Assembly: GCA_944372055.1 (NCBI GenBank)
Contig: CALVYF010000004.1
Location: forward strand, 1,810-65,809
Reading direction: 5' to 3'
Length of the DNA stretch: 64,000 nt
Source of the DNA: an uncultured Bacilli bacterium
GTDB lineage: Bacteria > Bacillota_I > Bacilli_A > RF39 > UBA660
The first letter of the stretch is position 1; each line of letters begins with the position of its first letter. The notes under the pieces are model-generated. The model ran no database searches. It was not told the origin of the DNA and saw only the letters and a list, made by a program, of their open reading frames with translations. Shown in pieces: positions 11,078-38,709 of the stretch. The position numbers were made by a program, and so were the translations under genes.

Positions 11078-12226
11078 ATGGAAAATGAAATTTTAATGGA
11101 TGACAAGAATATTCTTGTGATGAAATTACTTCATTATTTTATTATAGACAAAAATTATAATCCTATTATTTTACAAGGGGTTGAAAATGAGATTTGGTTA
11201 GAAAATCTTGATGAAGATTATAAAGTAGTACGAATTGTTTCTGGTTATATACATAATGATGAACAGTTTAATTTTGATGTTTTTAAAACGAAAAGGATTG
11301 TTAAAAAGATTAAAAAGAAAACTTTATCTTTTCGTATGAATACTTTGAGTATTTTTTTAGATTTAGGAGATAATGTAAGTCAAGATATTCATGCGATTCC
11401 TAATGTGGAATGTGTAAAAATTGATACAGAAGCAGATTTTAAGAAAAGTGATGTTATTAAAAAAGAGTTTCCTGATTTAACTAAAAAGTTAAAATTTAAT
11501 GAAAAAGGGATTGCTTTATTTGCTAAAATTACAAGTGATATTAATGAACATAATAAAAAAGATGCTAAGAAAATTAATGCTGTTTTTAAGAGTAATTTTC
11601 CAATGATTACTTATTGGTTAATCGCTGTTAATGTTATTTTGTATGTGATTCCTGTTTTGTTTGGATTGTATGATGATTTAATTGCTAACTTTTCTGTATG
11701 GGGACCGGCTATTCGTGAAGGGCAAACATATCGTTTGCTTACAGGAATATTCTTACATGGTGGTATTATGCATTTATTGTTTAACTGCTATGCCTTATAT
11801 GTTATTGGGTCTCAGGTAGAGAATTTTTTAGGTCGATTTAAATTTTTGATTATTTATTTAGTCGCTGGTATTAGTGGTGCTTTGTTTTCTATGATTTTTG
11901 GAAATTATGCATCTGTAGGTGCCAGTGGAGCTATTTTTGGACTTATGGGAGCACTTGTTTATTTTGGATATCATTATCGAGTTTATTTAGGAAATGTTGT
12001 TAAAAGTCAGATTATACCTTTGATTCTTTTGAATTTAGCTTTAGGATTCTTTATGTCTGGAGTAGATAATTTTGCTCATATTGGTGGACTTATTGGTGGT
12101 ACTTTAATGTCTATTGCTTTAGGGGTAAAGGATAAGAGTAGTTGGTTTGAAAGACTTAATGGGTGGATTATTACTGGTATTTTTATTGCCTTTGCTATCT
12201 ATATGGCTTTTGTTTATACGGTTTAG
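11078..12226 (+). CDS. rhomboid family intramembrane serine protease with a long cytoplasmic N-domain
   Basis: Motifs HGGIMHLLFN, GASGAIFGLMG (catalytic Ser) and HIGGLIGG (catalytic His). About 170 aa of soluble N-terminal extension. Confidence 0.85.
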   Translation: MENEILMDDKNILVMKLLHYFIIDKNYNPIILQGVENEIWLENLDEDYKVVRIVSGYIHNDEQFNFDVFKTKRIVKKIKKKTLSFRMNTLSIFLDLGDNVSQDIHAIPNVECVKIDTEADFKKSDVIKKEFPDLTKKLKFNEKGIALFAKITSDINEHNKKDAKKINAVFKSNFPMITYWLIAVNVILYVIPVLFGLYDDLIANFSVWGPAIREGQTYRLLTGIFLHGGIMHLLFNCYALYVIGSQVENFLGRFKFLIIYLVAGISGALFSMIFGNYASVGASGAIFGLMGALVYFGYHYRVYLGNVVKSQIIPLILLNLALGFFMSGVDNFAHIGGLIGGTLMSIALGVKDKSSWFERLNGWIITGIFIAFAIYMAFVYTV

Positions 12227-12259
12227 AAGAATATTCCTTTTTAGAATATTCTTTTTTTT
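12227..12259 (+). terminator. rho-independent terminator
   Basis: 10-bp stem AAGAATATTC/GAATATTCTT followed by a T-run. Confidence 0.7.
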
Positions 12260-12317
12260 GGTTGTAATAGTTTTTAATCAATGCTAAAATAGAAGTATAT
12301 TATAGTGAGGTGATATT

Positions 12318-12572
12318 ATGTCACAAGATAAGACAAGCTTATTTAATATTAAAGATATTGATAATCGTTTTATTAGTGATATTCTTGAAGAAGTATGGGA
12401 TTCTTTAGAAGAAAGAGGATATAACCCTAGTAATCAGATTGTTGGTTATTTAATTAGTGGAGATCCTGGGTATATTTCTAGTTATCAAGATGCTCGTACT
12501 AAAATTCAACAAGTAGATCGTGCAAAAATTATAGAAGTATTATTACAGGAATTTTATAAAAATCATAGATGA
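12318..12572 (+). CDS. ireB: IreB/YrzL family (UPF0297) regulatory protein
   Basis: EERGYNPSNQIVGYLISGDPGYISS is the conserved core. Its position upstream of ruvX matches Bacillus. Confidence 0.8.
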   Translation: MSQDKTSLFNIKDIDNRFISDILEEVWDSLEERGYNPSNQIVGYLISGDPGYISSYQDARTKIQQVDRAKIIEVLLQEFYKNHR

Positions 12573-13000
12573 AATATTTGGGTTTAGATTTAGGAAGTCG
12601 TACTTTAGGTATTGCAACAAGTGATTCTACTGGGATGATTGCGTCTAGTTATGGTGTTATTCGTCATCAAGAGGAATATGCGAGACTGGTTCAGGAAGTT
12701 GTTTCTTTAGTTGATGAATTGAAAATTGGTGCTGTTGTTTTAGGATTTCCTAAGAATATGAACAATTCTATTGGTCCTAAAGGTGAACTTAGTTTAAAAT
12801 TTCAGAAAGAATTAGAGAAAGTTTTATCTATTCCTGTATATTTACAAGATGAAAGATTATCTACCAAGAGTGCTACAGATATGCTTATTTATGCTGATGT
12901 TTCTAGAAAAAGTAGGAAAAAAGTAGTAGATAGTGTGGCTGCAACTATAATATTGCAAAGTTTTTTAGATAAGGAGAGAAAGCAAAATGAAGAAAAATAG
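12569..13000 (+). CDS. ruvX: Holliday junction resolvase-like RuvX/YqgF
   Basis: N-terminus LGLDLGSRTLGIA and DERLST motif. Stop/start overlap with ireB. Confidence 0.88.
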   Translation: MKYLGLDLGSRTLGIATSDSTGMIASSYGVIRHQEEYARLVQEVVSLVDELKIGAVVLGFPKNMNNSIGPKGELSLKFQKELEKVLSIPVYLQDERLSTKSATDMLIYADVSRKSRKKVVDSVAATIILQSFLDKERKQNEEK

Positions 13001-13312: not shown

Positions 13313-14383
13313 ATGGCAGTGAGGAGAAGACCGAAACCGTTACTAATCTTTTTAATTTTAATGGGTTCTTTATTAATTTTATTAGCGGCGGTTTATTTGT
13401 TTTTAGCAAGTCCTGTAGATAAAAATGATCATGATGATATAGAAATTGTTGTTCCTAGTGGTACCGGGGTTACAGGAATTGCTAAAATATTAAAAGAGAA
13501 TGATTTGATTCGTAGTGAAATGTTATTTACTATTACTGTAAAAAGTAAAGGCGACTTGTATTTACAAGCCTCTACTTATTTGTTTCGTAGGGATATGTCT
13601 ATGGAAGATATTATTTCTGAACTTGTTTCTGGAAGTCGGTATAATCCAGATGCTATTACGATTACTTTTAAAGAGGGAATGCGGATTACAGATTATGCTT
13701 CTGAAATTGCGAAGGCTACCAATCATTCAGAAACTGAAGTGTTAAATACATTAAATGATAGTACATTTTTAGAAACATTAAGAAAAAAATATTGGTTTTT
13801 GACAGATTCGATTTTACAAGAAGGGATTTACTATCCTTTAGAGGGATATTTAGCTCCTGATACTTATCAGTTTGATAACAAAGATGTTAGTATTTCTACT
13901 ATTGTTGAGACTATGCTAGATGAAATGGAAAAAGAGCTTGAACCATATAGAAGTCAGATTCAGAATAATGTACATTACTATATGACTATGGCATCGCTTG
14001 TGGAGTTAGAGGGAACTAATACTGAAAATCGTAAGATGATTGCTGGTATTTTTGAAAATAGGATTGCTGCTAATATGAATTTAGGTAGTGATGTTACTAC
14101 TTATTATGCATTACAACTTCCTATGACTAGTGATTTAACGACTGTTCAGTTTGCAACCGTTAATCCTTATAATACAAGGGCTGCTAATATGAGAGGACAG
14201 ATGCCTATAGGTCCTATTTGCAATCCTAGTTTATCTAGTTTGAAAGCTAGTATTGAGCCTACGGATAGTGATTATTTATACTTTGTTGCGGATAAAAATG
14301 GAAATATTTTCTATACTAATACCTTAGCGGAGCATGAAGCTATGGTACAGGAGATTAAAGATAAAGGTGATTGGATATGGTAG
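13313..14383 (+). CDS. mltG: endolytic murein transglycosylase MltG (YceG-like)
   Basis: N-terminal TM helix. Motifs MASLVELE and NPYNTR..GQMPIGPICNP. Confidence 0.88.
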   Translation: MAVRRRPKPLLIFLILMGSLLILLAAVYLFLASPVDKNDHDDIEIVVPSGTGVTGIAKILKENDLIRSEMLFTITVKSKGDLYLQASTYLFRRDMSMEDIISELVSGSRYNPDAITITFKEGMRITDYASEIAKATNHSETEVLNTLNDSTFLETLRKKYWFLTDSILQEGIYYPLEGYLAPDTYQFDNKDVSISTIVETMLDEMEKELEPYRSQIQNNVHYYMTMASLVELEGTNTENRKMIAGIFENRIAANMNLGSDVTTYYALQLPMTSDLTTVQFATVNPYNTRAANMRGQMPIGPICNPSLSSLKASIEPTDSDYLYFVADKNGNIFYTNTLAEHEAMVQEIKDKGDWIW

Positions 14384-14970
14384 ATAAATATGCTTTGATT
14401 CGCGAGATGAAGCAGTATGCAGAAGTTAATAATGTTCCTATTATGATGGATGAGGGGATTGATTTTCTTACTACATTTATTTTAAAAAATCATGTTAAGA
14501 ATGTTTTAGAGATAGGTACAGCCATTGGTTATTCTGCTATTATGATGGCTCTTGTTGATCCTAATCTTAAAATTACAACGATAGAAAGAGATGAAGTTCG
14601 TTATTTGGAAGCTTTAAAAAATATAAAAGCTTTTGGGTTGGAAGATAGAATTACATTAATTTATAATGATGCTTTTAATGTTAAATTGGATGAAAAGTTT
14701 GATTTAATATTTATCGATGCTGCGAAAGCACAAAATATTAAGTTTTTTGAAATGTTTGAACGCAATTTGGAGTATCGTGGAGCAATTGTTACTGATAATT
14801 TAAAGTTTCATGGCTTAGTAGATAAAAAAGAAGAAGAAATTAAAAGTAAAAATTTGAAAGCATTAGTTCGTAAGATTAAAGATTATATCGATTATTTGAA
14901 AACAAATGAAAAGTATAATACAGAGTTTTTTGAAGTGGGAGATGGAATTTCGGTTAGTGTGAGAAAGTAA
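14371..14970 (+). CDS. trmR: SAM-dependent O-methyltransferase (YrrM/TrmR-like)
   Basis: VLEIGTAIGYSAIMMA SAM motif and FIDAAK. Located between mltG and the U32 pair, as in the Bacillus yrrM position. Confidence 0.78.
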   Translation: MDMVDKYALIREMKQYAEVNNVPIMMDEGIDFLTTFILKNHVKNVLEIGTAIGYSAIMMALVDPNLKITTIERDEVRYLEALKNIKAFGLEDRITLIYNDAFNVKLDEKFDLIFIDAAKAQNIKFFEMFERNLEYRGAIVTDNLKFHGLVDKKEEEIKSKNLKALVRKIKDYIDYLKTNEKYNTEFFEVGDGISVSVRK

Positions 14971-14984
14971 TGGGGGTGAATCCT

Positions 14985-15722
14985 ATGTTTAATGTAGCAG
15001 AAGTAGAGACTAAAATATCTAAGAGGAAACCTATATGGATTATCTTTTGTATTCTTGTTGTAGTTATTGTTTCTTCTTTTGTTTTTTTTGTTTTGCTTTT
15101 TCCTAGAAAATTTGATTATCAAGATTTGTTAAAAAATAAGGAAAAAAATATTGTTTATTCTTTGGATTCTCTTGATGTTTTAGAAACAGATAAAGTCCCT
15201 GTAATTAATATTGATTCTTCTTTTATTGATGATATTAATTCTGATATTATGAATTATTACCAAGATTATTTAACGAAATTTACACAGGGATTTTTATATG
15301 AATATTCTGTTTCTGGTCCAGTGTTATCTATTTTAATTGTTTCACAACAACGTTATGCTGATGCTGAATATTCTGATATTTCTTATCACAGTTATAATAT
15401 TGATTTGGAAAAGATGGTATTACTTTCTGATAAAGATATTTTTGATATGTATAAAATTGATGAGGATACTTTACGGTATTTTATTACTTATAAATTTGTT
15501 GAATTTTATAATGATTTGATAAAACAAGGGTATTTTACTAAGGAGATGTGTGATTTTTCTTGTTTTATGGAATCTAAAAATATTGTTAATGTAATGAATG
15601 ATAATACGTATTATATTGAAGATGGAAAGTTAATTCTTTATAAACCATTTAATATTTATACTCCTTATAGTGAAGAGAAGTATTTTTCTTTGGATTCTTT
15701 CCGTTTTGTAGTAAAAGGTTAA
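14985..15722 (+). CDS. membrane-anchored extracytoplasmic protein, paralog of 17708..18499
   Basis: One TM helix (IWIIFCILVVVIVSSFVFFVLLF). Shares VPVINIDS, VLSILIV, ISYHSYNIDL and YYIEDGKLILYKPFNIYTPYSEE blocks with the 17708 product. No known family. Confidence 0.6.
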   Translation: MFNVAEVETKISKRKPIWIIFCILVVVIVSSFVFFVLLFPRKFDYQDLLKNKEKNIVYSLDSLDVLETDKVPVINIDSSFIDDINSDIMNYYQDYLTKFTQGFLYEYSVSGPVLSILIVSQQRYADAEYSDISYHSYNIDLEKMVLLSDKDIFDMYKIDEDTLRYFITYKFVEFYNDLIKQGYFTKEMCDFSCFMESKNIVNVMNDNTYYIEDGKLILYKPFNIYTPYSEEKYFSLDSFRFVVKG

Positions 15723-15734
15723 AGAGGTGATGGT

Positions 15735-16796
15735 ATGCCTTATTTGTATATTTTAGATTGTTCTGGAGATATTGATACTTGTTGTGCTGATTTTGGATTA
15801 GCTAATATTTTAGGAGCTATACAGAGGATTTTGAACATTATACATATTGTTGTTCCTATTATTTTAATGGTGGGATTAATTATACAATTTACGCAGATGG
15901 TTATTAATCCAGAGGATGATCGAAATCGTAAAAAGTCAAAAAGTTTAATTAATAGGGTTATGGCTACAGTTGTTGTCTTTCTTTTACCTACGATTGTGAA
16001 TGTTGCAGTTAATTTAGTATTTTCTGATTTTAGTTTTGCTTCTTGTTGGCATTCGGCAGAAATCAGTGAGGAAATGACATTGGCTATGGAAAATACTTTT
16101 ATATCTACTACGGATAAGAAACCTAAGAGCTTTATTACCATGCCGGAAGATTATGCTGATCCAAATGTTACTGCAACACCTGGAAATAGTAGTGATGGTA
16201 ATGGAAGTATTTTACTTATTGCAGGCCACTCTTATCCTCCTTACTGTAAGGGCTTTCCTGATGATTGTCGTGGTATGATTTCCTCTGGTTATGATGAAAC
16301 TGACCAAACGCGTATCTTAGTGAAGTTAATTCAATCTGAACTTAGTTCTTTGGGAGTTTCTTCTGATATTGCAAATGCTTTGATGGCTGGAAATTCTAAT
16401 GATATGAATACTTCTTTTTATCGTGAGTGTAGAAATGATTCTAGTTTATGTAATCAGTTTGACTGGGGCAAATATAAATATGTATTAGAGATTCATTTTA
16501 ATGCTTCTGGTAGTGGACGTGCGGCTGGTACTCAACTAGTCAAGAGAACTGGTAGTTATAGTACTCCTGCAGATCAAGCTATTGTTAATGCTGTGATATC
16601 TAATACTGGTCATCGTCAGTACTCTGATTATATTTATGGTGCTTTTAATATTGGGTATTTTATGAATTTAGGTGTCCCTGTTACTTATTTAGAAACAGAG
16701 TTTTATGATAATAAGCAGGCAATGGATACTTATAGTAGTAAAAAAGAACAGATTGCTAAAGATATAGCAAAGGTTATTCAACAGTATTATGGTTAA
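15735..16796 (+). CDS. N-acetylmuramoyl-L-alanine amidase (Amidase_3-like) fused to an N-terminal VirB2-like two-TM hairpin
   Basis: C-terminal motifs IAGHS, EIHFNAS and LETEFYDN are Amidase_3-like. The N-terminal 110 aa are CC-TM-charged loop-TM-CW, the same module as in 16878, 40264 and the C-terminus of 40713. Confidence 0.65.
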   Translation: MPYLYILDCSGDIDTCCADFGLANILGAIQRILNIIHIVVPIILMVGLIIQFTQMVINPEDDRNRKKSKSLINRVMATVVVFLLPTIVNVAVNLVFSDFSFASCWHSAEISEEMTLAMENTFISTTDKKPKSFITMPEDYADPNVTATPGNSSDGNGSILLIAGHSYPPYCKGFPDDCRGMISSGYDETDQTRILVKLIQSELSSLGVSSDIANALMAGNSNDMNTSFYRECRNDSSLCNQFDWGKYKYVLEIHFNASGSGRAAGTQLVKRTGSYSTPADQAIVNAVISNTGHRQYSDYIYGAFNIGYFMNLGVPVTYLETEFYDNKQAMDTYSSKKEQIAKDIAKVIQQYYG

Positions 16797-16877
16797 TTTT
16801 CTTTTCTTTTCTTTTTCTTAGATTTATAATAGAATAATGTTAGTTGTTAATTGCTCGAAGTAAGAGGTGGTGATATT

Positions 16878-17699
16878 ATGAGTGACTTAGTACAAGTTCT
16901 TAGTTGTAGTGAAGAGTTGGGTACTTGTTGTACAGATTATGGGTTGTTGACTATATTAGATATTTTGAGACAAATTCTAGATTTGATACAGATGGTTGCT
17001 CCTATTTTATTAATGACAGCTTTAGCAATTCAGTTTACTCAATTATTAATTAATCCAGATGATGATAAAAAGAAAAAAAGTTTGTTGAATAAATTTATTG
17101 CTATATTAGTATGCTTTTTTGTTCCATTTTTAGTAAATTTAGCCATTAGCTTAGTCCCCGAGGATATTGATTCTTTTCAATTAGGGGCTTGTTGGGATAC
17201 GGCTCGTATTTCTAGAGAGGTTTTGAAAAAAGAAAATAGTTCTTATGTTTCTACTACGGATAAAAAGCCACAAAGTTTTATTTTACAGTCTGATGATTAT
17301 AATCAACTTGATGTTACAACAGGGGAAGGAAGTGCAACTGGTAAAGCTATTGTTGAGTATGCAAAGTCTTTTGTTGGCGGTAGATATTGCTACGGAGGTA
17401 AAGATCCTAATGTATGTGCCGATTGCTCTGGTTTTGTTTCTTATGTTTTTGCGCATTTTGGTATTAATTTAATTTCGCAAACTGATTCTATGTGGAATCA
17501 AACAAATATGTATACTTTGGTAACCGATGGTAATATTAAAGCTGGTGATGTTGTTATGTACTATGGACATGTTGGGATTCTTACTGGTAATGGAGAAGAA
17601 ATGGTTCATGCTTCTAGTCCTTCTACAGGAATAAAAATATCCCCTTCTTATAATTATAGGACCGTACGTGGTATTATGAGGATAAAAGGTGTTAATTAG
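16878..17699 (+). CDS. NlpC/P60 peptidoglycan endopeptidase fused to an N-terminal VirB2-like two-TM hairpin
   Basis: C-terminal motifs YCYGGKDPNVCADCSGFVSYVF (catalytic Cys) and GHVGIL..VHAS. The N-terminal module is clearly alignable with that of 15735. The ATG at 16878 follows AGAGGTGG. Confidence 0.75.
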   Translation: MSDLVQVLSCSEELGTCCTDYGLLTILDILRQILDLIQMVAPILLMTALAIQFTQLLINPDDDKKKKSLLNKFIAILVCFFVPFLVNLAISLVPEDIDSFQLGACWDTARISREVLKKENSSYVSTTDKKPQSFILQSDDYNQLDVTTGEGSATGKAIVEYAKSFVGGRYCYGGKDPNVCADCSGFVSYVFAHFGINLISQTDSMWNQTNMYTLVTDGNIKAGDVVMYYGHVGILTGNGEEMVHASSPSTGIKISPSYNYRTVRGIMRIKGVN

Positions 17700-17707
17700 G
17701 AGGAATT

Positions 17708-18499
17708 ATGTTTGATGTCGTTCAAAATCAGGGGGGAAAAAGAAAAAGAAATTTTAAGTTTCGAAAAAGGAATTTTTCTTTTCACATTTCTTTTCCTGTG
17801 AAAAAGGTTCTTATCTGGGTTGGCGTTATTCTTTTAGCAATATTTTTAATTGGCTATTATTTATATAAAAACTATTATAGTAATTATAATTATATCAAAG
17901 AAGATTCTTCACAATATTTAGTTTATACTGTTGATACTTCTATGAATAATCAAAATATGCATAATGAAATTCCCTATATTAATATTGATAGTGATGATGC
18001 AAGATTAGTGAACCAGACGATTCAGCGATATGCAGAGTCATTTTTAAAGAATAAGAATAATTTAATGGTTTATGATTCACAGTTAAATGGAGAGGTTTTA
18101 TCTATTTTACTTCGTATGTCTGATTATAGTGCTGGTTATTCTTTTCCTGATATTTCTTTTCATACATATAATTTTGATTTAAATGATCAAACATTGATGT
18201 CAGATGAAGAATTATTAGCGCTTTTTGATGTGACAGAAGAGGAAGTAGAAAAGAAAATAGCGAGTCAGTTTAAGAAATACTATCAGCAAGAAGTGAAAAA
18301 AGGTTATCTAGTTTCACAAGAATGTGATTATGATTGCTTTTTAGCTTGGAGAGGAATTCAGAATTATAATTATATGGACTCTGTTTATTATTATGTAGAA
18401 AATGGTAGATTACTTGCGTATCGTCCATTTACAATATATTCAGCTTATGGAGAAGAAGAATTTTTTGATGATGAAAGTTATGCTTTTAGTATTACTTAA
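17708..18499 (+). CDS. membrane-anchored extracytoplasmic protein, paralog of 14985..15722
   Basis: Basic N-tail and one TM helix. Motifs IPYINIDS, VLSILLR, ISFHTYNFDL and YYVENGRLLAYRPFTIYSAYGEE. Confidence 0.6.
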   Translation: MFDVVQNQGGKRKRNFKFRKRNFSFHISFPVKKVLIWVGVILLAIFLIGYYLYKNYYSNYNYIKEDSSQYLVYTVDTSMNNQNMHNEIPYINIDSDDARLVNQTIQRYAESFLKNKNNLMVYDSQLNGEVLSILLRMSDYSAGYSFPDISFHTYNFDLNDQTLMSDEELLALFDVTEEEVEKKIASQFKKYYQQEVKKGYLVSQECDYDCFLAWRGIQNYNYMDSVYYYVENGRLLAYRPFTIYSAYGEEEFFDDESYAFSIT

Positions 18500-18586
18500 A
18501 TAGTATAACTTTTTTTCTTTTATCTTGTATTTCTTTTTGTTTTCATTTATTATATTATTGTATGATTATAATAGGATGTGATAGCT

Positions 18587-21205
18587 ATGAGGTTAAATAA
18601 AAAAGGATTTACATTAGTCGAAATACTTGCAGCTATTGTTATTTTAGGGATTTTGATGGGAATTGCGATAGTTTCAGTTTCTTCTATTTTGTCTAATTCT
18701 AAAGAGGGATTTTATGATAACTTGGAGGATCAATTAATACTAGCAGCAAAAAGTTATTATGGGGATCACAGAACTTTGTTACCACAAAATATTGGTCAAG
18801 AACGACAAGTTACTGTTGAGACATTAATTAAAAACAATTATCTTAAACGTGGATCTGTTGTTGATTATGGTAAAGCAGAGTGTAATACTACTGTAAGTTA
18901 TGTTAGCGTTATTAAATCTTCTAAAAAAGATTATATTTATAGTGTATATTTGAAATGTCCAGCTTATTCTATAGATCATAAAACTGAAATTGAAACTGAT
19001 TTAACTGTAAAGGTAACACTTACTAAGGCTATTCCTATCGAGGAATCTAAGGCTAAAATTGAAGTTTCTGTTAATGGTAATGAGCTTAGTAAAATTGGAA
19101 GCTATCAATATACAATTTATAAAAACGATCAAGTTGTTTATGTATCTAATAATATTTCTGGAGATAATCAGAGTAAAATTACAAAAACTGTTAAACTTAA
19201 GAAATATGTTCCTGGTGCTCTTAAAGTAGTAGCAACAGCTTATGATATTTATGGAAATGTTAAAAGTGATTTTAAATCAGAAAGTTTTTATGATGAAGGA
19301 TTGCCTAAATGTGGTAATCAAAGTCCATCCCTTGATTTAAAAAATAATAATCAATGGATTAATTCTTCTTCGTCTACTAAGAATCGTAAGCTTACTATGA
19401 AATGTATAAATAGTAGTACTAAGTGTTTGGCTTCTAGTTTTTCAAGAACCTTTTCTTCTGATAGTGATGAATCTTATATTACAATTTTAGGTAGCGATAA
19501 TGAAGAAGTTAATTGTCCAGTTACTGTTATGATTGATACAACGAAACCTGTATGTGGTAGTAAAAATGATAGTACGGTATGGACGAATAGTGATAGAGAA
19601 GTTACTGTTAAATGTAGTGATGCTACTAGTGGATGTAGACAATCTTCTTATACTGAAGTTTTTACTGATAGTAATACTAAAAATAAGGTGGTAAAAACTA
19701 AAAAGATTACTATTAAAGATAAAGCTGGAAATAGTAATAGTTGTGCTATGAATGTATATGTGGATAAACAAAAACCAACTTGTACGGTTAGTGGTGGAAG
19801 TACTGATTGGACAACGGATAATCGAACAGTTACTGTTACCTGTGATGATGGTGATGGTAGTGGTTGTAAAGTATCATCTTTTAAAGATACTGTTAGTACA
19901 TCAACAAAAATAAAAACTTATACTGTAGAGGATAATGCAGGAAATAAAGGAACATGTAAGGCAAATATTTATGTTGATAAGACTAAACCTAAATGTTCTA
20001 AAATCACAGGAGAAAGTAAAACTTGGACTTCTGATGATCGCACTATTAAAGTTGATTGTAGTGATTCTCATAGTGGATGTGTTAGTGATCCGGTATCTCA
20101 AACATTCTCTACTACGACTACTACTGCAGAAATTACTATTAAGGATAAAGTTGGCAATAGTACTGTCTGCCCAGTTGATGTTTATGTCGATAAAGATACA
20201 CCTACTTGTTCTATTTCTAACGGAGCTCCTACTATAAATACAAGTACTAGTCTTACTTTATCTGTGACGGGTAATGATGTTGGTTCTGGTCTTCATAATA
20301 ATCCATTTTCTTGGACTAGTGCTAGCAGTGGTTTTTCTACAACACGTACGAAAACAGTAACAGCCAATGGTACTTATACAGCCTGGGTTAAAGATAAGGC
20401 TGGGCTTATCGGTAGTTGCTCAATTAATATTGGTAACCTTCAATCTTCTTATAAAATTAATTATCATTATAATGGTGGTAGTAATAATGGTTGTGCTAGT
20501 CAATATCAGGTTGGTGATACTACAGCTCTTTGTACTCCAATTAAGGATAATTATTCATTTGAAGGTTGGTATATTGATAGTGATTTAAAAAATCAAATCT
20601 TATCTATTTCTAGTAGTCAACAGGGAGACATTGATTTGTATGCTAAATGGTCACCTATTGCTCCTACTTGTAATGGTGTTTCTGGTAATACAGGCTCAAC
20701 CTGGGCTAGTTCTAGAACTGTTACTGTTAGATGTAAAAATCCTGATGGTACTAGTTGTTCTTCTGTAACGGAAACGTATACAAGTAATGGTGATAAATCA
20801 TTAAAGATTAAGGGCTCTAATGGAGCAACACGAAGTTGTTCATTTACTGTTTCTAAAGTTGATTCTGCAACTCCAAAAGTAAAATATGCTGGTGCCAAGG
20901 GAAAAACACAATGTCCTAGTGGTGCTGCTTATGAGTGGTTAGAGTCTCGCTGGGTATTTAATATCACTAATACTGCTTCAGGATTTAGAACTAGTGGTTC
21001 TTATATGAAGGTTACGCTAAGTGGATATGATGAAAGTGGTACTTATAATTATGGTTCTGTAAAAGTTTCTAATGGTCGAGAGTTTGGATGCGCCTCTTGG
21101 TCTACTTCTCAATATTGGTTTGCACGAGCTACAAAACCATCTATTACAGCTGTAGCTTGTAATAATGCAGGGCGCTGTGGAAGTGCATCTATCAAAGAAA
21201 AATAG
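18587..21205 (+). CDS. giant modular type IV prepilin-like protein (class III signal, pilin head, 4-Cys repeats, Listeria-Bacteroides repeat)
   Basis: MRLNKKG/FTLVEILAAIVILGILMGIAIV is a canonical prepilin motif with Glu at +5. It is followed by a head domain with a Cys pair, about six 71-76 aa repeats and a YKINYHYNGG...FEGWY...LYAKW repeat (20450..20650). Confidence 0.8.
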   Translation: MRLNKKGFTLVEILAAIVILGILMGIAIVSVSSILSNSKEGFYDNLEDQLILAAKSYYGDHRTLLPQNIGQERQVTVETLIKNNYLKRGSVVDYGKAECNTTVSYVSVIKSSKKDYIYSVYLKCPAYSIDHKTEIETDLTVKVTLTKAIPIEESKAKIEVSVNGNELSKIGSYQYTIYKNDQVVYVSNNISGDNQSKITKTVKLKKYVPGALKVVATAYDIYGNVKSDFKSESFYDEGLPKCGNQSPSLDLKNNNQWINSSSSTKNRKLTMKCINSSTKCLASSFSRTFSSDSDESYITILGSDNEEVNCPVTVMIDTTKPVCGSKNDSTVWTNSDREVTVKCSDATSGCRQSSYTEVFTDSNTKNKVVKTKKITIKDKAGNSNSCAMNVYVDKQKPTCTVSGGSTDWTTDNRTVTVTCDDGDGSGCKVSSFKDTVSTSTKIKTYTVEDNAGNKGTCKANIYVDKTKPKCSKITGESKTWTSDDRTIKVDCSDSHSGCVSDPVSQTFSTTTTTAEITIKDKVGNSTVCPVDVYVDKDTPTCSISNGAPTINTSTSLTLSVTGNDVGSGLHNNPFSWTSASSGFSTTRTKTVTANGTYTAWVKDKAGLIGSCSINIGNLQSSYKINYHYNGGSNNGCASQYQVGDTTALCTPIKDNYSFEGWYIDSDLKNQILSISSSQQGDIDLYAKWSPIAPTCNGVSGNTGSTWASSRTVTVRCKNPDGTSCSSVTETYTSNGDKSLKIKGSNGATRSCSFTVSKVDSATPKVKYAGAKGKTQCPSGAAYEWLESRWVFNITNTASGFRTSGSYMKVTLSGYDESGTYNYGSVKVSNGREFGCASWSTSQYWFARATKPSITAVACNNAGRCGSASIKEK
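19298..20870 (+). repeat. tandem protein-level repeats (about 71-76 aa, 4 conserved Cys) inside the giant pilin gene
   Basis: Unit pattern K(P/T)xC-x(about 20)-V(K/T)C-x6-7-C-x(about 30)-C-xxxVYVD. Unit starts lie near 19298, 19538, 19766, 19979 and 20192 (this unit is degenerate), and again at about 20650 after the Listeria-Bacteroides repeat. Confidence 0.75.
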
Positions 21206-21219
21206 GAGGATAATGAATT

Positions 21220-22092
21220 ATGAAGAGAAAAATTATATTATTTATTATTATTTTCCTTGGTTTGGGGTTGTTGATAGGGGGAGTAGTAATTTCTGTTTTT
21301 ACTCCTTCTACTACTACTACTAAATTGGAAGCTGAACTTAAAGATATTCAAACTGAACAAGTTACCAAAGATGAAGTAACTAAATATATTGAGTTATTGT
21401 ATAGTGATGATGTAACAGCGGCTAAAGTTGAAAAATTTACAGGTTCTGATATTGGCCATGATATGCTTTTTATAGGAAAAGATTCCTATTTACGAAAACG
21501 ACCTTCTAATAAGGTTATAGATAAGTATAATTTACAAGATTATAAAAATAAACAAGATATTTATGCCTCTAATGTAGAAAAAATTATGAGAGATAATTTA
21601 GATTATCAATTGGGAGAATATATTGTTTCTAAAGAAGGCGACATTGTTCAAAAATTTAGTTATAGAACTTATTATTATCAATTATATTTGGGAGACTTAA
21701 ATGAAGTTATTAATATATTAATTCCGAGTGTTTTTGATAATTATTCTGAAATGTTGGTAAGAAATTTGACAGAAGAGGAATCAGTCAAAATGTATCAATT
21801 GAAAATAAAAGCATTAGAGATTATGGATAGTTATGTTAATAATTATATAAATAATGATGAGATTATTTCTTTAGATTTGATTTATAAAAAAGAAAATGAT
21901 AAGATTTTGCAAGATTATTTTACTTTGTTAATGCAATTAAGTGGAAGTTTTTATCAAAATGTCTCTTACCAGACTCCTGAGGAAGAGCAAACTATAATTT
22001 CTAATCGAACTGCTAGAGTTCAAGAGATTGTTAATACTGCGGTTAATAATCAGACTTTGGATATGACAAATCCTTTACAATTGTCTAAATAG
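21220..22092 (+). CDS. hypothetical membrane-anchored protein
   Basis: Good RBS (AGGAGGA). N-terminal TM helix followed by a 260-aa soluble domain. No family recognised. Confidence 0.55.
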   Translation: MKRKIILFIIIFLGLGLLIGGVVISVFTPSTTTTKLEAELKDIQTEQVTKDEVTKYIELLYSDDVTAAKVEKFTGSDIGHDMLFIGKDSYLRKRPSNKVIDKYNLQDYKNKQDIYASNVEKIMRDNLDYQLGEYIVSKEGDIVQKFSYRTYYYQLYLGDLNEVINILIPSVFDNYSEMLVRNLTEEESVKMYQLKIKALEIMDSYVNNYINNDEIISLDLIYKKENDKILQDYFTLLMQLSGSFYQNVSYQTPEEEQTIISNRTARVQEIVNTAVNNQTLDMTNPLQLSK

Positions 22093-22093
22093 T

Positions 22094-22122
22094 GGTTGAG
22101 ATTTCTCAACCTTTTCTTTTTT
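22094..22122 (+). terminator. rho-independent terminator closing Locus A
   Basis: Stem GGTTGAG/CTCAACC with a 4-nt loop, followed by TTTTCTTTTTT. Confidence 0.6.
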
Positions 22123-22158
22123 CTTTGTTTATTATATAATATTGATAGAGGTGGAGAA

Positions 22159-23013
22159 ATGAAAGTATTAGTGGAAGTTGCAAACAAAGAAATTTCTAAT
22201 TATATCGGTTTTTGTGATGCTTTATTATTAGGTTTAGAAAATTTTTCTGTTTTAAACTCTGCTACTTTCTCTTTAGCTGAAATTAGGGAAATTATAAATA
22301 AATATCCAAGGATAGAAATCTTTGTTAAGATGGATAAAAATATATTTAATAAAGAAATTGATGAGGTTAGGCATGTGCTTTTAGAGTTAGAGCAGATGTC
22401 TATTTGTGGTGTATTCTTTTATGATTTAGCCATTTTAGAATTAAAGCAGGAGCTTTCTTTGTCCTTAGATTTGGTATGGAGTCAAACTCATATGATTACG
22501 AATACTCGTACTTGTGATTATTATTTTCATCAAGGTGTTCGTTATGCTTTGCTTTCTAAAGAGATTACCTTAGATGAGATTGTAGAAATTTCTAAAGAAT
22601 CGTCTATTAGTACTATTGTTGAAGTAGTCAGTTTGCCAAGTGTTGGTTATAGTAGAAGAAAATTAGTTCATAATTATTATGAAGATTTAGGAGAAAATGG
22701 TAGTTCTACACTTTCGGTTTTAGAAAAGATTACAAATAAAAAATATTTAGTAAAAGAAGAAAATAATGGAACTGGATTTTTACTTGATGAAGTGTTAAAT
22801 GGTACGTCAGTTGTTTCTTCTTTATATCATGTTGGTGTTGATTATGTGTTGTTTAGAGAAGAAGGTGTTTCTTCTTTCTTAGAACTTATTCGTGATACTA
22901 AGCAATATATTAAAGAGGGATGTAGTGATGCTTCTTATGTAGAAAAATATAAAAAGTTAGGGGATAGTACTGGATTCTTTTTTAAGAAAACTATCTATAG
23001 GGTGAAAAAATGA
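22159..23013 (+). CDS. yrrN: peptidase U32 family protein (YrrN-like)
   Basis: The ATG at 22159 follows GGTGGAG. It is paired and overlapping with the YrrO-like U32 gene, in a Bacillus yrrM-yrrN-yrrO-like arrangement. Confidence 0.7.
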   Translation: MKVLVEVANKEISNYIGFCDALLLGLENFSVLNSATFSLAEIREIINKYPRIEIFVKMDKNIFNKEIDEVRHVLLELEQMSICGVFFYDLAILELKQELSLSLDLVWSQTHMITNTRTCDYYFHQGVRYALLSKEITLDEIVEISKESSISTIVEVVSLPSVGYSRRKLVHNYYEDLGENGSSTLSVLEKITNKKYLVKEENNGTGFLLDEVLNGTSVVSSLYHVGVDYVLFREEGVSSFLELIRDTKQYIKEGCSDASYVEKYKKLGDSTGFFFKKTIYRVKK

Positions 23014-24197: not shown

Positions 24198-24452
24198 GAG
24201 GTAGATATTATGAATAAAATTTTGTAGACGAGATAGAAAAATGAATTATCAAAGTAAGGATATATCTGTTATTGGAGATTATGTTTTTTATGTTAATGAC
24301 TTTAGTGAAGAGGTTGATTGGTAAATTAAACAAAGAAAAGAAATTACTTTAGATGATGATTGGTTTGATTATGTTATTCATAGAACTTATGATGAAGAAT
24401 AATTTGAAAAAGATATAAAAGAGGTTATTTTAAAAATTTAAAACTTAATGGG

Positions 24453-28589: not shown

Positions 28590-30407
28590 ATGGATAATCA
28601 AAAAGTTATTGATAAGAAATTTATTAGATATCTTAAAACTGCTGTTGTAGTAATCGTTATTGCATTATTTTTATGGTTTTTAGTTATTCATCCTTTACTT
28701 ACATTTCATGGCTATGAAAAAGATATAGAGGCTGCTGCTAAAAGATATTACGAGATTAATGCAAGAGAATTACCTACTGGAACTCGTGTAAAGACAATTA
28801 GTGTTCAAAAATTATTTGATCAAGCTTATTTAAAAGAAGATTTTTATGTTCCTTTTTCTAAAAAACCATGTTCTATTACAGATAGCTGGGTTAAAGTTAG
28901 ACAAGAAGATGGAGAATATAGGTATTACACTTATTTAAAATGCGGTATTATTTCTTCTAATGTTGATCATAAAGGACCTGAAATTACTTTAAATGGGAAT
29001 GAAGAAGTTACTATTAATTTGGGTTCTAAGTATAAAGAAGAAGGCGTTAAAAGTGTTGTTGATAATATTGATGGCAAGATGGATGTTAAGAATGTAGAAA
29101 TTGATTCTACTGAGGTTAATACTAATAAGGCTGGTACTTATAAAGTAATATATACTGCCACTGATAGTTTGAACAATACAAATGAAGTTGTTAGAACAGT
29201 TAAGGTAGTAGAAAGGTTAAAAAATACAGTAAATAAGGCTACTAATAAGACTGGAGTATATACTGGGTCTAATCCAAATAACTATATTTATTTTTCGAAA
29301 ATGTTATTTAGAATTGTCGATATAGATGGTGACAATGTAAGAATTGTTGCAGAACAAGATGTTAGTAATGTTAATTATACTGCTATTGATGAATGGTTAG
29401 AGTATTATTATGATCATATCGCTGACGAATCTAAAAAAATTGTTGTAAAAAATAAATATTGTGATATGCAGACTAATGATAATGATATTTCTAGTATAGA
29501 TAAATGTAGTTCTTATACGAAAGAAAAAGAAGTCTCTATTTTATCAGCTAGTGATATTAATCAAGCAACAACAGAAGAGGGGAATTGGTTGCGTCCTGAT
29601 AGCATTTCCTGGGTTCGTAATGAAAAAGATAATAAGAATGCTTATACAGTTAGAAATAGATTCTATAATACAGATGCTCGTTATATGTCTTTTGATCAAA
29701 ATTATAATTTTGGTATTCGTCCAGTTTTGACTATTAAAGGTTCTACTTTAATAGAAGATGGCGATGGTACAAAAGAGAATCCTTATTCTATTGGGGATAT
29801 GGAAAGTGCTAAAGCTGGAGATAAATTAAATACGAGATATTCAGGTGAATTTGTTTCTTATTCTGGAATGTTATGGAGAGTTATGGAAATAGATTCTGAT
29901 AATACTACAAAAGTCATTGCTAATACTACTATTTATAATGATGGAGAACGTGTCCTTACTTCTTATGATACAGATTTAAAAGCAAAAATTTATAATCCCA
30001 AAGAACGTGGTAATGTAGGTTACTTTATTACTAATCAAGCTACACGATATCTAAATATGGATTCTTTTGTAACTAAAGAAATTGAAGTTCCTATTTATCA
30101 TAATATGATTCGATATGGAAAAGAAAGCACTACTAAAAAATATAAAGTAAAGATTTCTGCTCCTAATATGTATGAGATGTTTAGTGCTTTTGATTATAAT
30201 TCTGTTACAATGAAATCTTATTGGTTGATTAACTCTTCTAAAGCACAATATACAAAGGCACTGATTTCTGATATTGGTGTTGTGATGTATGGTTCTATTT
30301 ATGATAATGTAGAGTATGGTATTCGCCCTGTAGGTTATTTGAGTAAAGATTGTTCTATTGTGCGTGGTAAAGGTACTTATGAAGATCCATATATTATAGC
30401 AGAATAG
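28590..30407 (+). CDS. membrane-anchored surface protein: pilin-head-like domain, Ig-like (DUF5011-type) domain and two copies of a C-terminal module
   Basis: TM anchor followed by AAAKRYYE..ELP..ISVQKL..C..VKV..YRYYTYLKCG, which is alignable with the giant pilin head. GPEITLNG...GTYKVIYTATD...RTVKV is Ig-like. There are two modules ending in GIRPV...G(D/K)GT.E(N/D)PY(S/I)I. Confidence 0.6.
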   Translation: MDNQKVIDKKFIRYLKTAVVVIVIALFLWFLVIHPLLTFHGYEKDIEAAAKRYYEINARELPTGTRVKTISVQKLFDQAYLKEDFYVPFSKKPCSITDSWVKVRQEDGEYRYYTYLKCGIISSNVDHKGPEITLNGNEEVTINLGSKYKEEGVKSVVDNIDGKMDVKNVEIDSTEVNTNKAGTYKVIYTATDSLNNTNEVVRTVKVVERLKNTVNKATNKTGVYTGSNPNNYIYFSKMLFRIVDIDGDNVRIVAEQDVSNVNYTAIDEWLEYYYDHIADESKKIVVKNKYCDMQTNDNDISSIDKCSSYTKEKEVSILSASDINQATTEEGNWLRPDSISWVRNEKDNKNAYTVRNRFYNTDARYMSFDQNYNFGIRPVLTIKGSTLIEDGDGTKENPYSIGDMESAKAGDKLNTRYSGEFVSYSGMLWRVMEIDSDNTTKVIANTTIYNDGERVLTSYDTDLKAKIYNPKERGNVGYFITNQATRYLNMDSFVTKEIEVPIYHNMIRYGKESTTKKYKVKISAPNMYEMFSAFDYNSVTMKSYWLINSSKAQYTKALISDIGVVMYGSIYDNVEYGIRPVGYLSKDCSIVRGKGTYEDPYIIAE

Positions 30408-35319: not shown

Positions 35320-36747
35320 ATGAATGAGAACATATTTGATAAGTTAGATTTTGGTCCTTTGCGTCCTTTGCTTGATAATGATGATATTACGGATATTTCA
35401 TTCGATAATAATGGTCAGATTTGGGTAAGGTCTCTAACACAAGGATCTTTAAGAGTAGAGGTTCAAGGATTAACTCCTGAATTTATTGAGAAGTTAGCTT
35501 TTCAATGCTCTAATGTTATGGGAACTACATTTAACAATGCTAAACCATTCTTGGATGCTGAATCAGCAGAGTTACGTTTGAATTTCGTTCATCCTTCTAT
35601 TGCTACTAACGGAATTGCGATGGTTATTCGTAAAACTCCTGCTAAAATTCGTTTGGAAAAGGATAAGTTACTTAAAGATGATTATTTTACACAAGATATT
35701 CATGATATTTTGATTAAATGTGTGGAAGGTCACTGTAATATTATTGTCTGTGGAGAGACTGGTTCTGGTAAAACAGAATTTGTTAAGTACTTGGCGAGTC
35801 ATACGCGTACAAATGAAAAGATTATTACTATTGAAGATACTTTAGAACTTCATTTGGATAAAATTTTCCCTCAAAGAGATATTGTTGCGATGAAGACTAA
35901 TAATGTTGCTAGTTATACAGATGTGCTTGTTACTTGTATGCGTCAGAATCCTAAATGGATATTATTATCTGAGGTTCGTAGTGCAGAAGCTGTTTCGGCA
36001 GTTCGTAACTCTATTTCTTCTGGACATAATATTTTATCAACCATTCATGCTGATAAAGCTTCTGCTATTCCTTATCGTATGTATAGTTTGATGGAAACAG
36101 ATTTGGATGTTAATCAATTTTTAAATACTATTTATCGATATATTCAAATTGGTGTTCATATTAAGGCTTATTATAGTAAGGAATTGGGAAAATTTCATCG
36201 TGAGGTTGATGAAGTTGCTGAATTCTATGTTGATGAGGAAAATAAACCGCAATGTAGAATTATATATCAAAAATTGTTTGGACAGGAACCGGTGTTACGT
36301 AAACCTAGTCCACATTTAATTGAATATTTAGAAAATCAAAATATTGATATTAACTCTATTACTGAACATTTAAGCGATGATTTACCGTTTAAAGATGATG
36401 AAGAGAAGGAAGAATATATGGAGAGTCATAAAGCAGAGGATGATACTACTGGTGATTCTGTGGAGACTACTAACGATGAAGAAGTTCCTCAAGTTGTAAA
36501 TATTACTCCTGTAGTGCAACCAACAGTACAAAGTGCTCCTGTTGTTAATTCAACAGTCCCTAATTCGAGTGCTGTACTAGCTGTAACACCGACGGTTCAA
36601 GTTCCAGCAGCTATGAGTGTAGAACCATCTATACAACTTGCTCCTACTGTGGAGACATCTCCAAATACTTCCACTATACCTACTCCTAATGAAGCACTAA
36701 ACGTTACGTCACCTGTAGATTTTTCTTCTTTAGGTAATTTAGAGTAG
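35320..36747 (+). CDS. cpaF: CpaF/TadA-type secretion ATPase (T2SSE family) with a P/T/V-rich C-terminal tail
   Basis: Walker A VCGETGSGKTEF, TIEDTLEL, Walker B-like WILLSEVR and His box STIHA. The last 120 aa or so are low-complexity. Confidence 0.85.
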   Translation: MNENIFDKLDFGPLRPLLDNDDITDISFDNNGQIWVRSLTQGSLRVEVQGLTPEFIEKLAFQCSNVMGTTFNNAKPFLDAESAELRLNFVHPSIATNGIAMVIRKTPAKIRLEKDKLLKDDYFTQDIHDILIKCVEGHCNIIVCGETGSGKTEFVKYLASHTRTNEKIITIEDTLELHLDKIFPQRDIVAMKTNNVASYTDVLVTCMRQNPKWILLSEVRSAEAVSAVRNSISSGHNILSTIHADKASAIPYRMYSLMETDLDVNQFLNTIYRYIQIGVHIKAYYSKELGKFHREVDEVAEFYVDEENKPQCRIIYQKLFGQEPVLRKPSPHLIEYLENQNIDINSITEHLSDDLPFKDDEEKEEYMESHKAEDDTTGDSVETTNDEEVPQVVNITPVVQPTVQSAPVVNSTVPNSSAVLAVTPTVQVPAAMSVEPSIQLAPTVETSPNTSTIPTPNEALNVTSPVDFSSLGNLE

Positions 36748-38495: not shown

Positions 38496-38535
38496 ATATA
38501 ATGTATATAGAATAGGAAAGGATGTGTATGTCTTA

Positions 38536-38709
38536 ATGAAAGCAGCAACAGGTGAATTAAATTTAACAGTAATTACTCTTATTGCTATTGCGGCAGTAAT
38601 TGGTTTTTTCTGGATTATGTGGCCTAATATTCAAGGTTCTATTAACTCTCAATGGGAGAATATTTCAAGTGATTATAGTGGATATATTGTTTTAGAACAT
38701 AATAAATAA
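38536..38709 (+). CDS. candidate Flp/type IVc-like small pilin
   Basis: 57 aa: short leader MKAATG followed by the hydrophobic helix ELNLTVITLIAIAAVIGFFW. It has its own promoter and sits in the Tad context. It lacks the classical G/xxxxEY motif. Confidence 0.45.
   Translation: MKAATGELNLTVITLIAIAAVIGFFWIMWPNIQGSINSQWENISSDYSGYIVLEHNK

Follow-up and report, generated by a model that had tools for sequence, protein, structure and literature searches.

Within the window, that is, the whole stretch of 64,000 nucleotides analysed here from contig CALVYF010000004.1 of an uncultured Bacilli bacterium, the gene at 18587..21205 encodes a protein of 872 residues that starts as a type IV prepilin and continues as a long row of immunoglobulin-like (Ig-like) domains. 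That it is a modular prepilin, and probably an adhesin, is well founded, and from its sequence we reasonably infer that it is displayed on a filament, at the tip. The window has about 30% G+C and almost all of its genes lie on the plus strand. The parts of the prepilin gene are as follows.

18573..18576, plus strand: Shine-Dalgarno-like AGGA, read from the sequence, 10 nt 5' of ATG 18587
18587..21205, plus strand: modular prepilin gene, 872-aa product, stop codon included
18587..18607, plus strand: leader peptide MRLNKKG (residues 1-7), predicted cleavage after Gly7, covered by Pfam N_methyl and TIGR02532
18608..18694, plus strand: hydrophobic alpha-1N, FTLVEILAAIVILGILMGIAIVSVSSILS (residues 8-36), with Phe+1 and Glu+5
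18695..18988, plus strand: pilin head (residues 37-134), the rest of alpha-1 and then four strands, with Cys99/Cys124
18989..19300, plus strand: Ig1, Cys-free Ig-like domain (residues 135-238), a beta-sandwich in the model, sub-threshold CATSPERG_Ig-like match
19301..19543, plus strand: repeat R1 (residues 239-319), Cys 242, 273, 280 and 310
19544..19771, plus strand: repeat R2 (residues 320-395), Cys 323, 343, 350 and 386
19772..19984, plus strand: repeat R3 (residues 396-466), Cys 399, 419, 427 and 457; recombination breakpoint at its end
19985..20197, plus strand: repeat R4 (residues 467-537), Cys 470, 491, 498 and 528
20198..20443, plus strand: repeat R5v (residues 538-619), a variant with the outer Cys pair only (541, 611) and an insertion
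20444..20659, plus strand: Listeria-Bacteroides repeat, Flg_new PF09479 (residues 620-691)
20660..20857, plus strand: repeat R6 (residues 692-757), Cys 695, 716, 724 and 751
20858..21202, plus strand: C-terminal domain (residues 758-872), Cys 776, 835, 858 and 864; putative ligand-binding tip

The plus-strand reading frame is uninterrupted to 21205 from either GTG 18578 or ATG 18587. ATG 18587 is likely the start codon, because the AGGA stands only 1 nt from the GTG and because the N-termini of all close homologs read MRLNKKG or MKLNKKG. A sigma-70-like -10 box at 18567-18572 was rejected as the prepilin promoter since it abuts the ribosome-binding site too closely, and a promoter scan gave a result no better than shuffled sequence.

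The N-terminus, MRLNKKG/FTLVEILAAIVILGILMGIAIV, is a class III signal with a short basic leader ending in Gly, Phe+1, Glu+5 and about 20 hydrophobic residues. Pfam N_methyl matches residues 4-28 (E 7.8e-8; 32 bits, cut-off 21.2) and NCBIfam TIGR02532 scores 29 against 16.3 (E 6.4e-7), with further partial NCBIfam matches to GspG, ComGC-GF and PpdD. Flp/Tad pilins have about 50-80 residues and a G/XXXXEY site, whereas this protein has 872 residues and a G/FTLVE site of the type IVa (T4a), Com and type II secretion system (T2SS) kind, and its gene is 14 kb from the VirB11/TadA-like ATPase gene described below. Nor is it a sortase substrate of the LPXTG kind: the C-terminus (...AVACNNAGRCGSASIKEK) has neither LPXTG nor a terminal transmembrane (TM) segment. 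In AlphaFold2 models alpha-1 is a helix of about 50 residues (11-60 in the full model and 10-60 in a model of the domain), with a predicted local distance difference test score (pLDDT) of 81-97 from residue 11. The head of the domain model (pLDDT 87) has strands at 72-76, 105-110, 116-123 and 128-130. Its two cysteines, C99 (AECNTT) and C124 (YLKCPAY), are each at least 90% conserved in the family and delimit a C-terminal loop resembling the D-region of pilins, the bond itself being putative.

From residue 135 onward the full AlphaFold2 model, computed from a 49-sequence alignment (mean pLDDT 82), consists of all-beta beads, and its low predicted template modelling score (pTM 0.38) fits a flexible string of such beads. 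The best Foldseek matches of this model in the PDB are multi-Ig rods (E 5e-14; the GhpA neck and the extenders of ice-binding and Lap adhesins), which are generic multi-Ig stalks and identify no individual domain. A hidden Markov model (HMM) of the repeat, built from distant family members only (P0022 onward), finds six copies at 231-318, 317-394, 395-465, 466-536, 538-615 and 688-759 (E 1e-9 to 6e-30). Their consensus is xPxC...W(T)...R(T)v.v.C.D..SGC...(~25 residues)...i.DxAGN...C..NVYVDK. R2, R3 and R4 are 42-48% identical to one another and the other pairs 13-38%; all four cysteines of R1 are invariant in the 49-sequence alignment. When 31 single repeat instances were searched against Pfam, nine hit DUF7743, five HYR, four Big_13 and three Big_3_2, all below threshold (best E 7e-4), and searches of the four-cysteine repeat in Pfam and the PDB together returned sub-threshold matches only (DUF7743, HYR, Big, Lap). 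Judged by sequence, these repeats are HYR/Big-like but can be filed in none of these families. The Listeria-Bacteroides repeat is clear, with Flg_new at residues 622-687 (E 8e-13; 48.7 bits, cut-off 27) and TIGR02543 at 28.1 against 20.95. The C-terminal domain of 115 aa is beta-rich in the model (pLDDT 60-78); residues 758-872 match no family, and a homolog search with this domain alone returned no scored candidates. The whole protein contains 30 cysteines and is rich in Ser, Thr, Lys, Asn and Gly.

A sequence-only reading of this DNA had proposed much of this architecture. Its KKG/FTLVE signal with alpha-1 is upheld by both family models and both structure models, and its head cysteine pair, its Listeria-Bacteroides repeat and the Ig-like nature of its repeats all bear out. 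It had counted about six repeats with four cysteines; there are six repeats, of which five have four cysteines and R5v has two. The three repeats that it placed nearly in register at 19538, 19766 and 19979 have KPxC motifs that start two codons later, at 19544, 19772 and 19985. It had not noticed that the distal part is exchanged jointly with the downstream gene, that the prepilin gene belongs to a conserved cassette of six genes that includes two cell-wall hydrolases, or that two proteins at the borders of the T4SS/Tad-like cluster have the same head, all of which are described below.

The prepilin belongs to a large family. A search with the full-length protein returned 284 relatives, nearly all annotated by PF07963 alone, and a profile of the head only (residues 37-138, without the generic alpha-1N) matched 2,804 clusters at 50% identity with E <= 1e-3, or 956 representatives at the same identity with E <= 1e-10. 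Among the best 150 of the 2,804, the match generally occupies residues ~36-150 of the protein and begins no later than residue ~60, at ~35-60 except in three N-terminally truncated calls; 134 of these proteins were new, 104 of them having at least 450 residues and 17 at least 1,000, with a maximum of 1,668. Most members have 450-1,700 residues, and a single prepilin at locus L018 (9965-16291) reaches about 2,090. In the set of 254 collected proteins used for motif and domain counts, 237 have G/A-F-x-x-x-E followed by a hydrophobic run, with Gly at -1 in 227 and Ala in 10, Phe at +1 in 235 and a median leader of 8 residues; the other 17 are mostly truncated gene calls that begin inside the helix (MVELLA...). 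Because G-1, F+1 and E+5 are almost invariant family-wide, the prepilin start is genuine and no fortuitous signal-anchor; on the latter the sequence-only reading would have failed, and the homologs rule it out.

Glu+5 is required for the assembly of filaments and not for cleavage. Its near-invariance therefore favours polymerisation, or the capping of a polymer, over mere anchoring, and is our main argument for it. This bears on one rival explanation, in which the protein would never enter a filament: the class III signal would serve insertion only, alpha-1N would anchor the protein, with cleavage or without, and the rod would cross the wall, by analogy with archaeal bindosome proteins that carry class III signals. 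For a mere anchor, the almost invariant Glu+5 and Phe+1 are hard to explain. A profile of the first 138 residues also matches alpha-1 of solved pilins, best Geobacter PilA-N (5e-14) and S. sanguinis PilE1 (1e-12), followed by MshA, gonococcal PilE, PpdD and GspG. Short pilins of 133-150 aa with the same head exist as well (P0179, P0195, P0245, and others at L014 and L021 in related metagenome-assembled genomes). Because of these, the giant forms look like modules grafted onto an ordinary pilin, and those of about 135 aa are candidate filament subunits, a second point against the non-filament explanation.

Among the 254 members, phmmer finds Ig1 in 163, Flg_new in 13 and the C-terminal domain in 8; the conserved core of the family is the pilin module with Ig1 and the repeats. 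Relatives have 1 to 14 repeats, with 3 to 6 among those at the same locus, a variation that the sequence-only reading had suggested looking for. A genome scan with a 9-sequence N-terminal alignment gave matches that were all in gut metagenome-assembled genomes (human Hadza, rabbit, ruminants) labelled 'uncultured Bacilli', 'Mycoplasma sp. CAG:877', 'Tenericutes' or 'Erysipelotrichaceae', presumably the RF39-like orders of GTDB. In several related genomes (L018, L012, L011, L005, L009), two or three giant prepilins form tandem arrays with housekeeping genes such as gyrB, mutS and addAB around them. A literature search for pilins of RF39 or Tenericutes gave nothing specific to this family.

Relatives whose MltG is 79-98% identical share the gene order around the prepilin: RuvX-DUF1292-MltG-O-methyltransferase-(A1-H1-H2-A2-pilin-B)-U32-U32-...-GreA-type IV secretion system (T4SS) cluster. 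We take this to be the B. subtilis yrrK...yrrO arrangement with an insertion of six genes, shown here in parentheses. Comparison among these relatives locates the variable part of the prepilin. Identity to P0002 falls from 97% in the signal and alpha-1N, 96% in the head and 91% in Ig1 to 73-84% in the repeats and 72% in the C-terminal domain, with 72-81% across the distal part; in P0004 the C-terminal domain is only 33% identical and the rest of the protein 72-94%. At L003, which is about 91% identical in DNA, blastn shows collinearity up to 19983, the end of R3, and similarity returns at 22086. The exchanged segment and its surroundings are as follows.

19984..22085, plus strand: segment exchanged in L003, comprising R4, R5v, Flg_new, R6, the C-terminal domain and all of gene B; no DNA similarity
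21220..22092, plus strand: gene B, 290 aa with an N-terminal membrane anchor, 15 nt downstream of the prepilin gene; co-varies with the distal pilin
22094..22111, plus strand: hairpin and T-run resembling a terminator, directly behind gene B; by chance alone the scanned region would hold two such sites

In place of this segment, the L003 allele (11398-12951; protein P0009) encodes an Ig-like domain, three thrombospondin type-1-like repeats and a Cys-rich end, and the gene downstream encodes an unrelated membrane-anchored protein of 214 aa that replaces B. Thrombospondin type-1 repeats are mostly a eukaryotic adhesion module and unusual in a bacterial pilin. Those of P0009 read WSxCSxTCGGG..., and faint PF00090/PF19028 matches occur in many family members. 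The product of gene B is predicted to be mostly extracytoplasmic, and a PDB sequence search with it found nothing. The fetched loci contain 37 giant prepilins; 16 have a gene for a small protein next downstream, mostly within ~20 nt, and seven have another giant prepilin there. The 16 small proteins have 120-313 aa and an N-terminal TM anchor and are mutually non-homologous; Pfam matched no family in the ten that were searched. From this pattern we infer that the distal module and the protein encoded downstream are specific physical partners; proteins of the B type may be chaperones, docking partners or immunity proteins. A distal end that varies behind a conserved signal fits the role of an adhesin, as the sequence-only reading had supposed for this modular prepilin.

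The joint exchange of the C-terminal region and the downstream gene would also be expected of a polymorphic toxin or contact-dependent effector, whose stalk delivers a C-terminal toxin and for which B is the cognate immunity protein. The small, non-homologous, membrane-anchored proteins after 16 of the 37 giant prepilins and the restriction of the C-terminal domain to 8 of 254 members agree with such a system. However, searches of the C-terminal domain, of B and of ten further downstream proteins detected no toxin, pre-toxin or immunity family, and the exchanged block takes in about 400 aa of stalk repeats and not just the terminal domain. Moreover, the thrombospondin type-1-like repeats of the alternative allele are adhesive modules, and that B has 290 aa, mostly outside the cytoplasm, also speaks against it. 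We consider the toxin explanation highly improbable.

Two small observations concern the DNA downstream of gene B. The hairpin at 22094-22111 is GC-rich and overlaps the TTG codon listed as the start of the U32 peptidase open reading frame (ORF), which probably begins about 21 codons later, as in relatives (284 aa versus 305). In two close relatives, L002 (15600-16238) and L003 (15076-15714), a gene of the Zeta_toxin family separates the U32 genes from the HD gene; it is absent from the window at ~24200-24450 and represents a small strain-specific indel.

Upstream of the prepilin, the remaining genes of the inserted cassette A1-H1-H2-A2-pilin-B, which is syntenic in four relatives (L001, L002, L003, L007), include two wall hydrolases.

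14970..15722, plus strand: A1, 250 aa, membrane-anchored, paralog of A2
15735..16796, plus strand: H1, VirB2-like Cys-rich 2-TM N-module with an Amidase_3 peptidoglycan hydrolase
16851..17699, plus strand: H2, the same N-module as H1 with an NlpC/P60 endopeptidase
17708..18499, plus strand: A2, 263 aa, membrane-anchored, paralog of A1

A1 and A2 are 33% identical, bracket both hydrolases and have no match in Pfam, NCBIfam or the PDB. The N-module common to H1 and H2 has 140 aa, two TM segments and many cysteines, is 42% identical between the two proteins and falls just below threshold for T4SS_pilin and for pLS20_p028-type conjugation proteins. A stand-alone N-module of 134 aa occurs at L014 5794-6198, adjoining a paralog of the head domain and a short pilin. 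By analogy with S. sanguinis, in which a peptidoglycan hydrolase was reported in 2026 to contribute to pilus extrusion (PMC13192262), H1 and H2 plausibly open the wall locally for a bulky pilin. Such hydrolases would be of use also to a rod that crosses the wall outside any filament, and in this way they count in favour of the non-filament explanation. That the organism is walled is shown by MltG, a sortase, several hydrolases and weak matches to SpoVID-N/LysM (62353-63069) and SpoIID (46642-48969); the last two hint at wall remodelling of the sporulation type in a lineage often labelled 'Mycoplasma' or 'Tenericutes'.

Farther downstream, at 27023-53341, lies a chromosomal T4SS/Tad-like cluster that is syntenic in relatives and contains the following genes.

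28590..30407, plus strand: 605-aa protein at the cluster start, TM helix and pilin-type head (BLASTP E 9e-10), Pfam Bact_surface_Ig-like
30423: sortase-B-like protein
33988: DUF5411
34412: CpaB-like protein
35320-36747: ATPase, best NCBIfam matches VirB11 and 'TadA family conjugal transfer-associated ATPase'
36764 and 37666: two proteins with four TM segments (4-TM proteins)
40258: VirB2-like
41919: VirB6/TrbL
43984: VirB3-like
44824: VirB4
46642-48969: SpoIID and C39-like hydrolase
49796: VirD4
52163..53341, plus strand: 392-aa protein with the same head (BLASTP E 4e-9), the last gene of the cluster, after VirD4

No relaxase or integrase turned up among the ORFs of this region scanned with Pfam. 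In this respect the cluster resembles that of Patescibacteria, in which a chromosomal, relaxase-less monoderm T4SS stands alongside an essential type IV pilus (PMC12102498). The two proteins of 605 and 392 aa have no G/FTLVE site and begin with an ordinary signal anchor. At L016, the order VirB3-x-VirB4-hydrolase-x-VirD4 is followed by a giant prepilin with GFTLVE in the slot of 52163..53341, and at L015 VirD4 is followed by a homolog of the 392-aa protein, with a giant prepilin about 4 kb further on. The gene order at L016 suggests a real but thin link of the prepilin family to the T4SS/Tad-like apparatus.

These neighbours raise a further rival, namely that the prepilin is a contact or adhesin subunit of the T4SS/Tad-like apparatus, assembled by the VirB11/TadA-like ATPase and the two 4-TM partners and serving cell-cell contact for the transfer of DNA or protein, or an epibiotic lifestyle. 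Besides the two same-head proteins that bracket the cluster and the prepilins next to VirD4 at L016 and near it at L015, this explanation draws on the likeness of the H1/H2 N-module to the VirB2-like proteins of the cluster, on the T2SSE-family ATPase and CpaB-like protein and on the Patescibacteria analogue. Yet the prepilin lies 6 kb outside the cluster with housekeeping genes between (those of U32 peptidases, GreA and an HD protein), and for most family members there is no T4SS gene closer than 10 kb. Neither of the two 4-TM proteins is recognised by a T2SSF or TadB/TadC model, and no prepilin peptidase was found in the cluster. The cluster also has a small candidate pilin of its own, an ORF of 61 aa at 38524-38709 (MYVLMKAATGELNLTVITLIAIAAVIGFF...) located between the second 4-TM protein and an ORF of 148 aa with a hydrophobic N-terminus; it matches no family and may be the Flp-like pilin of a Tad-like unit. 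On balance we regard assembly by this apparatus as quite unlikely. Bolder still, and in our view more doubtful, is the proposal that giant prepilins and the head paralogs lacking a cleavage site together form contact organelles of a hybrid T4SS and Tad/VirB11-like machine, apparently relaxase-less. In such a machine alpha-1 would dock strain-variable Ig-rod adhesins, each with its cognate membrane partner, and VirB2-anchored hydrolases would open the wall.

No dedicated machinery for a type IV filament was found nearby. Pfam and NCBIfam were run on the ORFs of 13313-23013 and 27023-53341, and the remaining ORFs of the window were covered by reading their translations by eye, by a Walker-A regular expression (regex) and by a G.GD scan. 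The sole T2SSE-family match that these checks gave in the window is the ATPase at 35320-36747, whose best NCBIfam match is VirB11/TadA-like; the sequence-only reading had rightly seen no type IV pilus motor besides this Tad ATPase. No T2SSF match was found in the window ORFs scanned, and no ORF in the window with at least three TM segments has a G.GD motif as expected of an A24-like peptidase. A regex/TM search for prepilin peptidases in the window and 85 loci found A24-like genes only in the Clostridia controls L056 and L060; by the same scan, pilin, PilB and A24 occur together in the controls L056, L060 and L065. Beyond the window, extension by exact matches gave housekeeping genes only. In similar low-G+C genomes, a lone PilB/GspE-type ATPase gene stands divergent from a single pilin gene (L080 7700-9717, L048 1-2423), and from these sequences the genes of type IV filament machinery seem to be scattered in such small genomes. 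Because such lone ATPases occur, non-adjacency is weak evidence that the machinery is absent. The ATPase of L080 and L048 has 486 aa and a Cys4 motif, with no PilC or PilD nearby. Proteins of about 760 aa with a P-loop near several pilin pairs were considered as motors and rejected, the one at the locus checked, L042, being FtsK.

We favour, at roughly 55%, the view that the prepilin is a modular minor type IV pilin of low abundance, probably located at the tip, and acts as a long-reach surface adhesin. In this mechanism, alpha-1N would insert the prepilin into the membrane, a prepilin peptidase encoded elsewhere in the genome would remove MRLNKKG, and a type IV filament machine would lift the mature subunit out of the membrane through alpha-1. 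The ~90-kDa subunit would sit at the tip, where it would prime or cap a pilus or a short pseudopilus, because one of that size cannot pack in the filament body. The Ig-like rod, stiffened by probable disulfides, would project the variable C-terminal domain beyond the peptidoglycan to a ligand, with the amidase and NlpC/P60 hydrolases plausibly opening the wall and the co-swapped, membrane-anchored B plausibly partnering with the distal module.

Several observations weigh against this view. Neither an A24 peptidase nor PilB/ComGA nor PilC/ComGB was found in the 64-kb window, in the 7 kb upstream of it (seen in L088) or within ~10 kb of giant prepilins in the Bacilli genomes examined, and the prepilin genes are scattered among housekeeping genes. 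Likeness in sequence to solved pilins is confined to alpha-1 and ends near residue 90. Foldseek, which copes poorly with a long isolated helix and a very small sheet, gave the isolated pilin module no better PDB match than E 0.6. The head paralogs with a plain anchor show that the head is workable without cleavage, and 30 cysteines, whose disulfides are putative, are unusual in an exported protein of a presumed anaerobe. Much of this is what the non-filament explanation would predict: no type IV pilus machinery stands beside any of the ~37 giant prepilins inspected, the genes are scattered, same-head paralogs make do with a signal anchor, and the head found no pilin match with Foldseek. Set against it, besides the conserved signal and the short pilins, are the lone PilB/GspE-type ATPases of L080 and L048, which make scattered machinery normal. 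We hold a purely wall-spanning, pilin-anchored protein to be unlikely, and retain the minor pilin at the filament tip as the better account.

As a tip-located minor pilin, the protein can be placed among known systems. Modular pilins were defined by Raynaud et al. in 2021, who listed more than 1,200 in 264 architectures, including an example of 860 residues and the combination IPR012902-IPR013378 (N_methyl with a Listeria/Bacteroides repeat), and who argued that they are probably tip-exposed, with CofB, TcpB, ComZ and GspK as precedents (PMC8179133). With Flg_new above threshold and about eight further beta-sandwich domains behind its pilin module, the prepilin falls within their definition. 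To call it extreme, as the sequence-only reading did, overstates the case, since the 860-residue precedent exists (PMC8179133) and the family itself reaches ~2,090 aa. The prepilin thus extends a known class and founds no new category. What sets it apart is an Ig-rod of about nine domains in place of a single graft, a repeat unit without a family model and a very large, lineage-specific expansion, as well as a distal end that swaps jointly with the downstream gene, the cassette with its hydrolases, a location outside any pil locus and the head paralogs at the T4SS.

Its closest parallels are PilB (vWA) and PilC (lectin) of the monoderm S. sanguinis, which likewise combine a class III signal and a small pilin module with grafted modules and are predicted to be tip-located and adhesive (PMC8179133; PMC9934059). 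They differ in having one graft instead of a rod of about nine beta-sandwich domains and ~460 aa instead of 872. The prepilin described here, known from sequence alone, has a repeat unit that no Pfam model matches at threshold, is encoded outside a pil locus and swaps its distal modules along with a downstream gene. CofB of enterotoxigenic Escherichia coli and TcpB of Vibrio cholerae are large type IVb minor pilins with beta-rich domains joined to the pilin module by a linker, and are thought to initiate assembly, sit at the tip and mediate binding. Unlike the 872-aa prepilin, they belong to diderms, are encoded inside a pilus operon and have two extra domains only, and no relationship to them was detected by sequence or Foldseek. 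A prepilin of similar size with many tandem repeats, from an uncultured reduced-genome bacterium of another phylum, follows the same logic with a different repeat family.

The part after the pilin module is a tandem Ig-like rod like the adhesin extenders of MpIBP (4p99/5irb) and Lap (6xi3) and the neck of GhpA (9flp). Lap repeats even share the D-x-A-G-N motif with the prepilin repeats, the sequence relationship being sub-threshold (E 0.087). These proteins differ in that they are exported and anchored by type I or type IX secretion systems and their repeats are stabilised by calcium and are not Cys-rich. The archaeal bindosome consists of sugar-binding proteins with class III signals that are processed by PibD, large surface proteins outside any pilus, with scattered genes. 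NCBIfam includes a model of one component, BasE. Its substrates are archaeal, with a different head and different cargo domains, and bear only on the non-filament explanation.

Modular pilins are the current explanation for the functional variety of simple type IV filaments, and the few studied so far are all bimodular. The family described here, with 2,804 clusters and no name so far, shows a pilin module that bears a long Ig-like rod with interchangeable tips. The swap of tips, the wall hydrolases and the heads on the T4SS side bear on how bulky pilins cross the wall and which machine assembles them. If the hybrid contact organelle were real after all, it would mean attachment to and exchange with other bacteria or a host, and monoderms would have a new way to couple subunits of type IV filaments to type IV secretion. 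If these prepilins are displayed on the surface, they are probably major determinants of adhesion in abundant uncultured gut Bacilli, and likely targets of host immunity and of phages.

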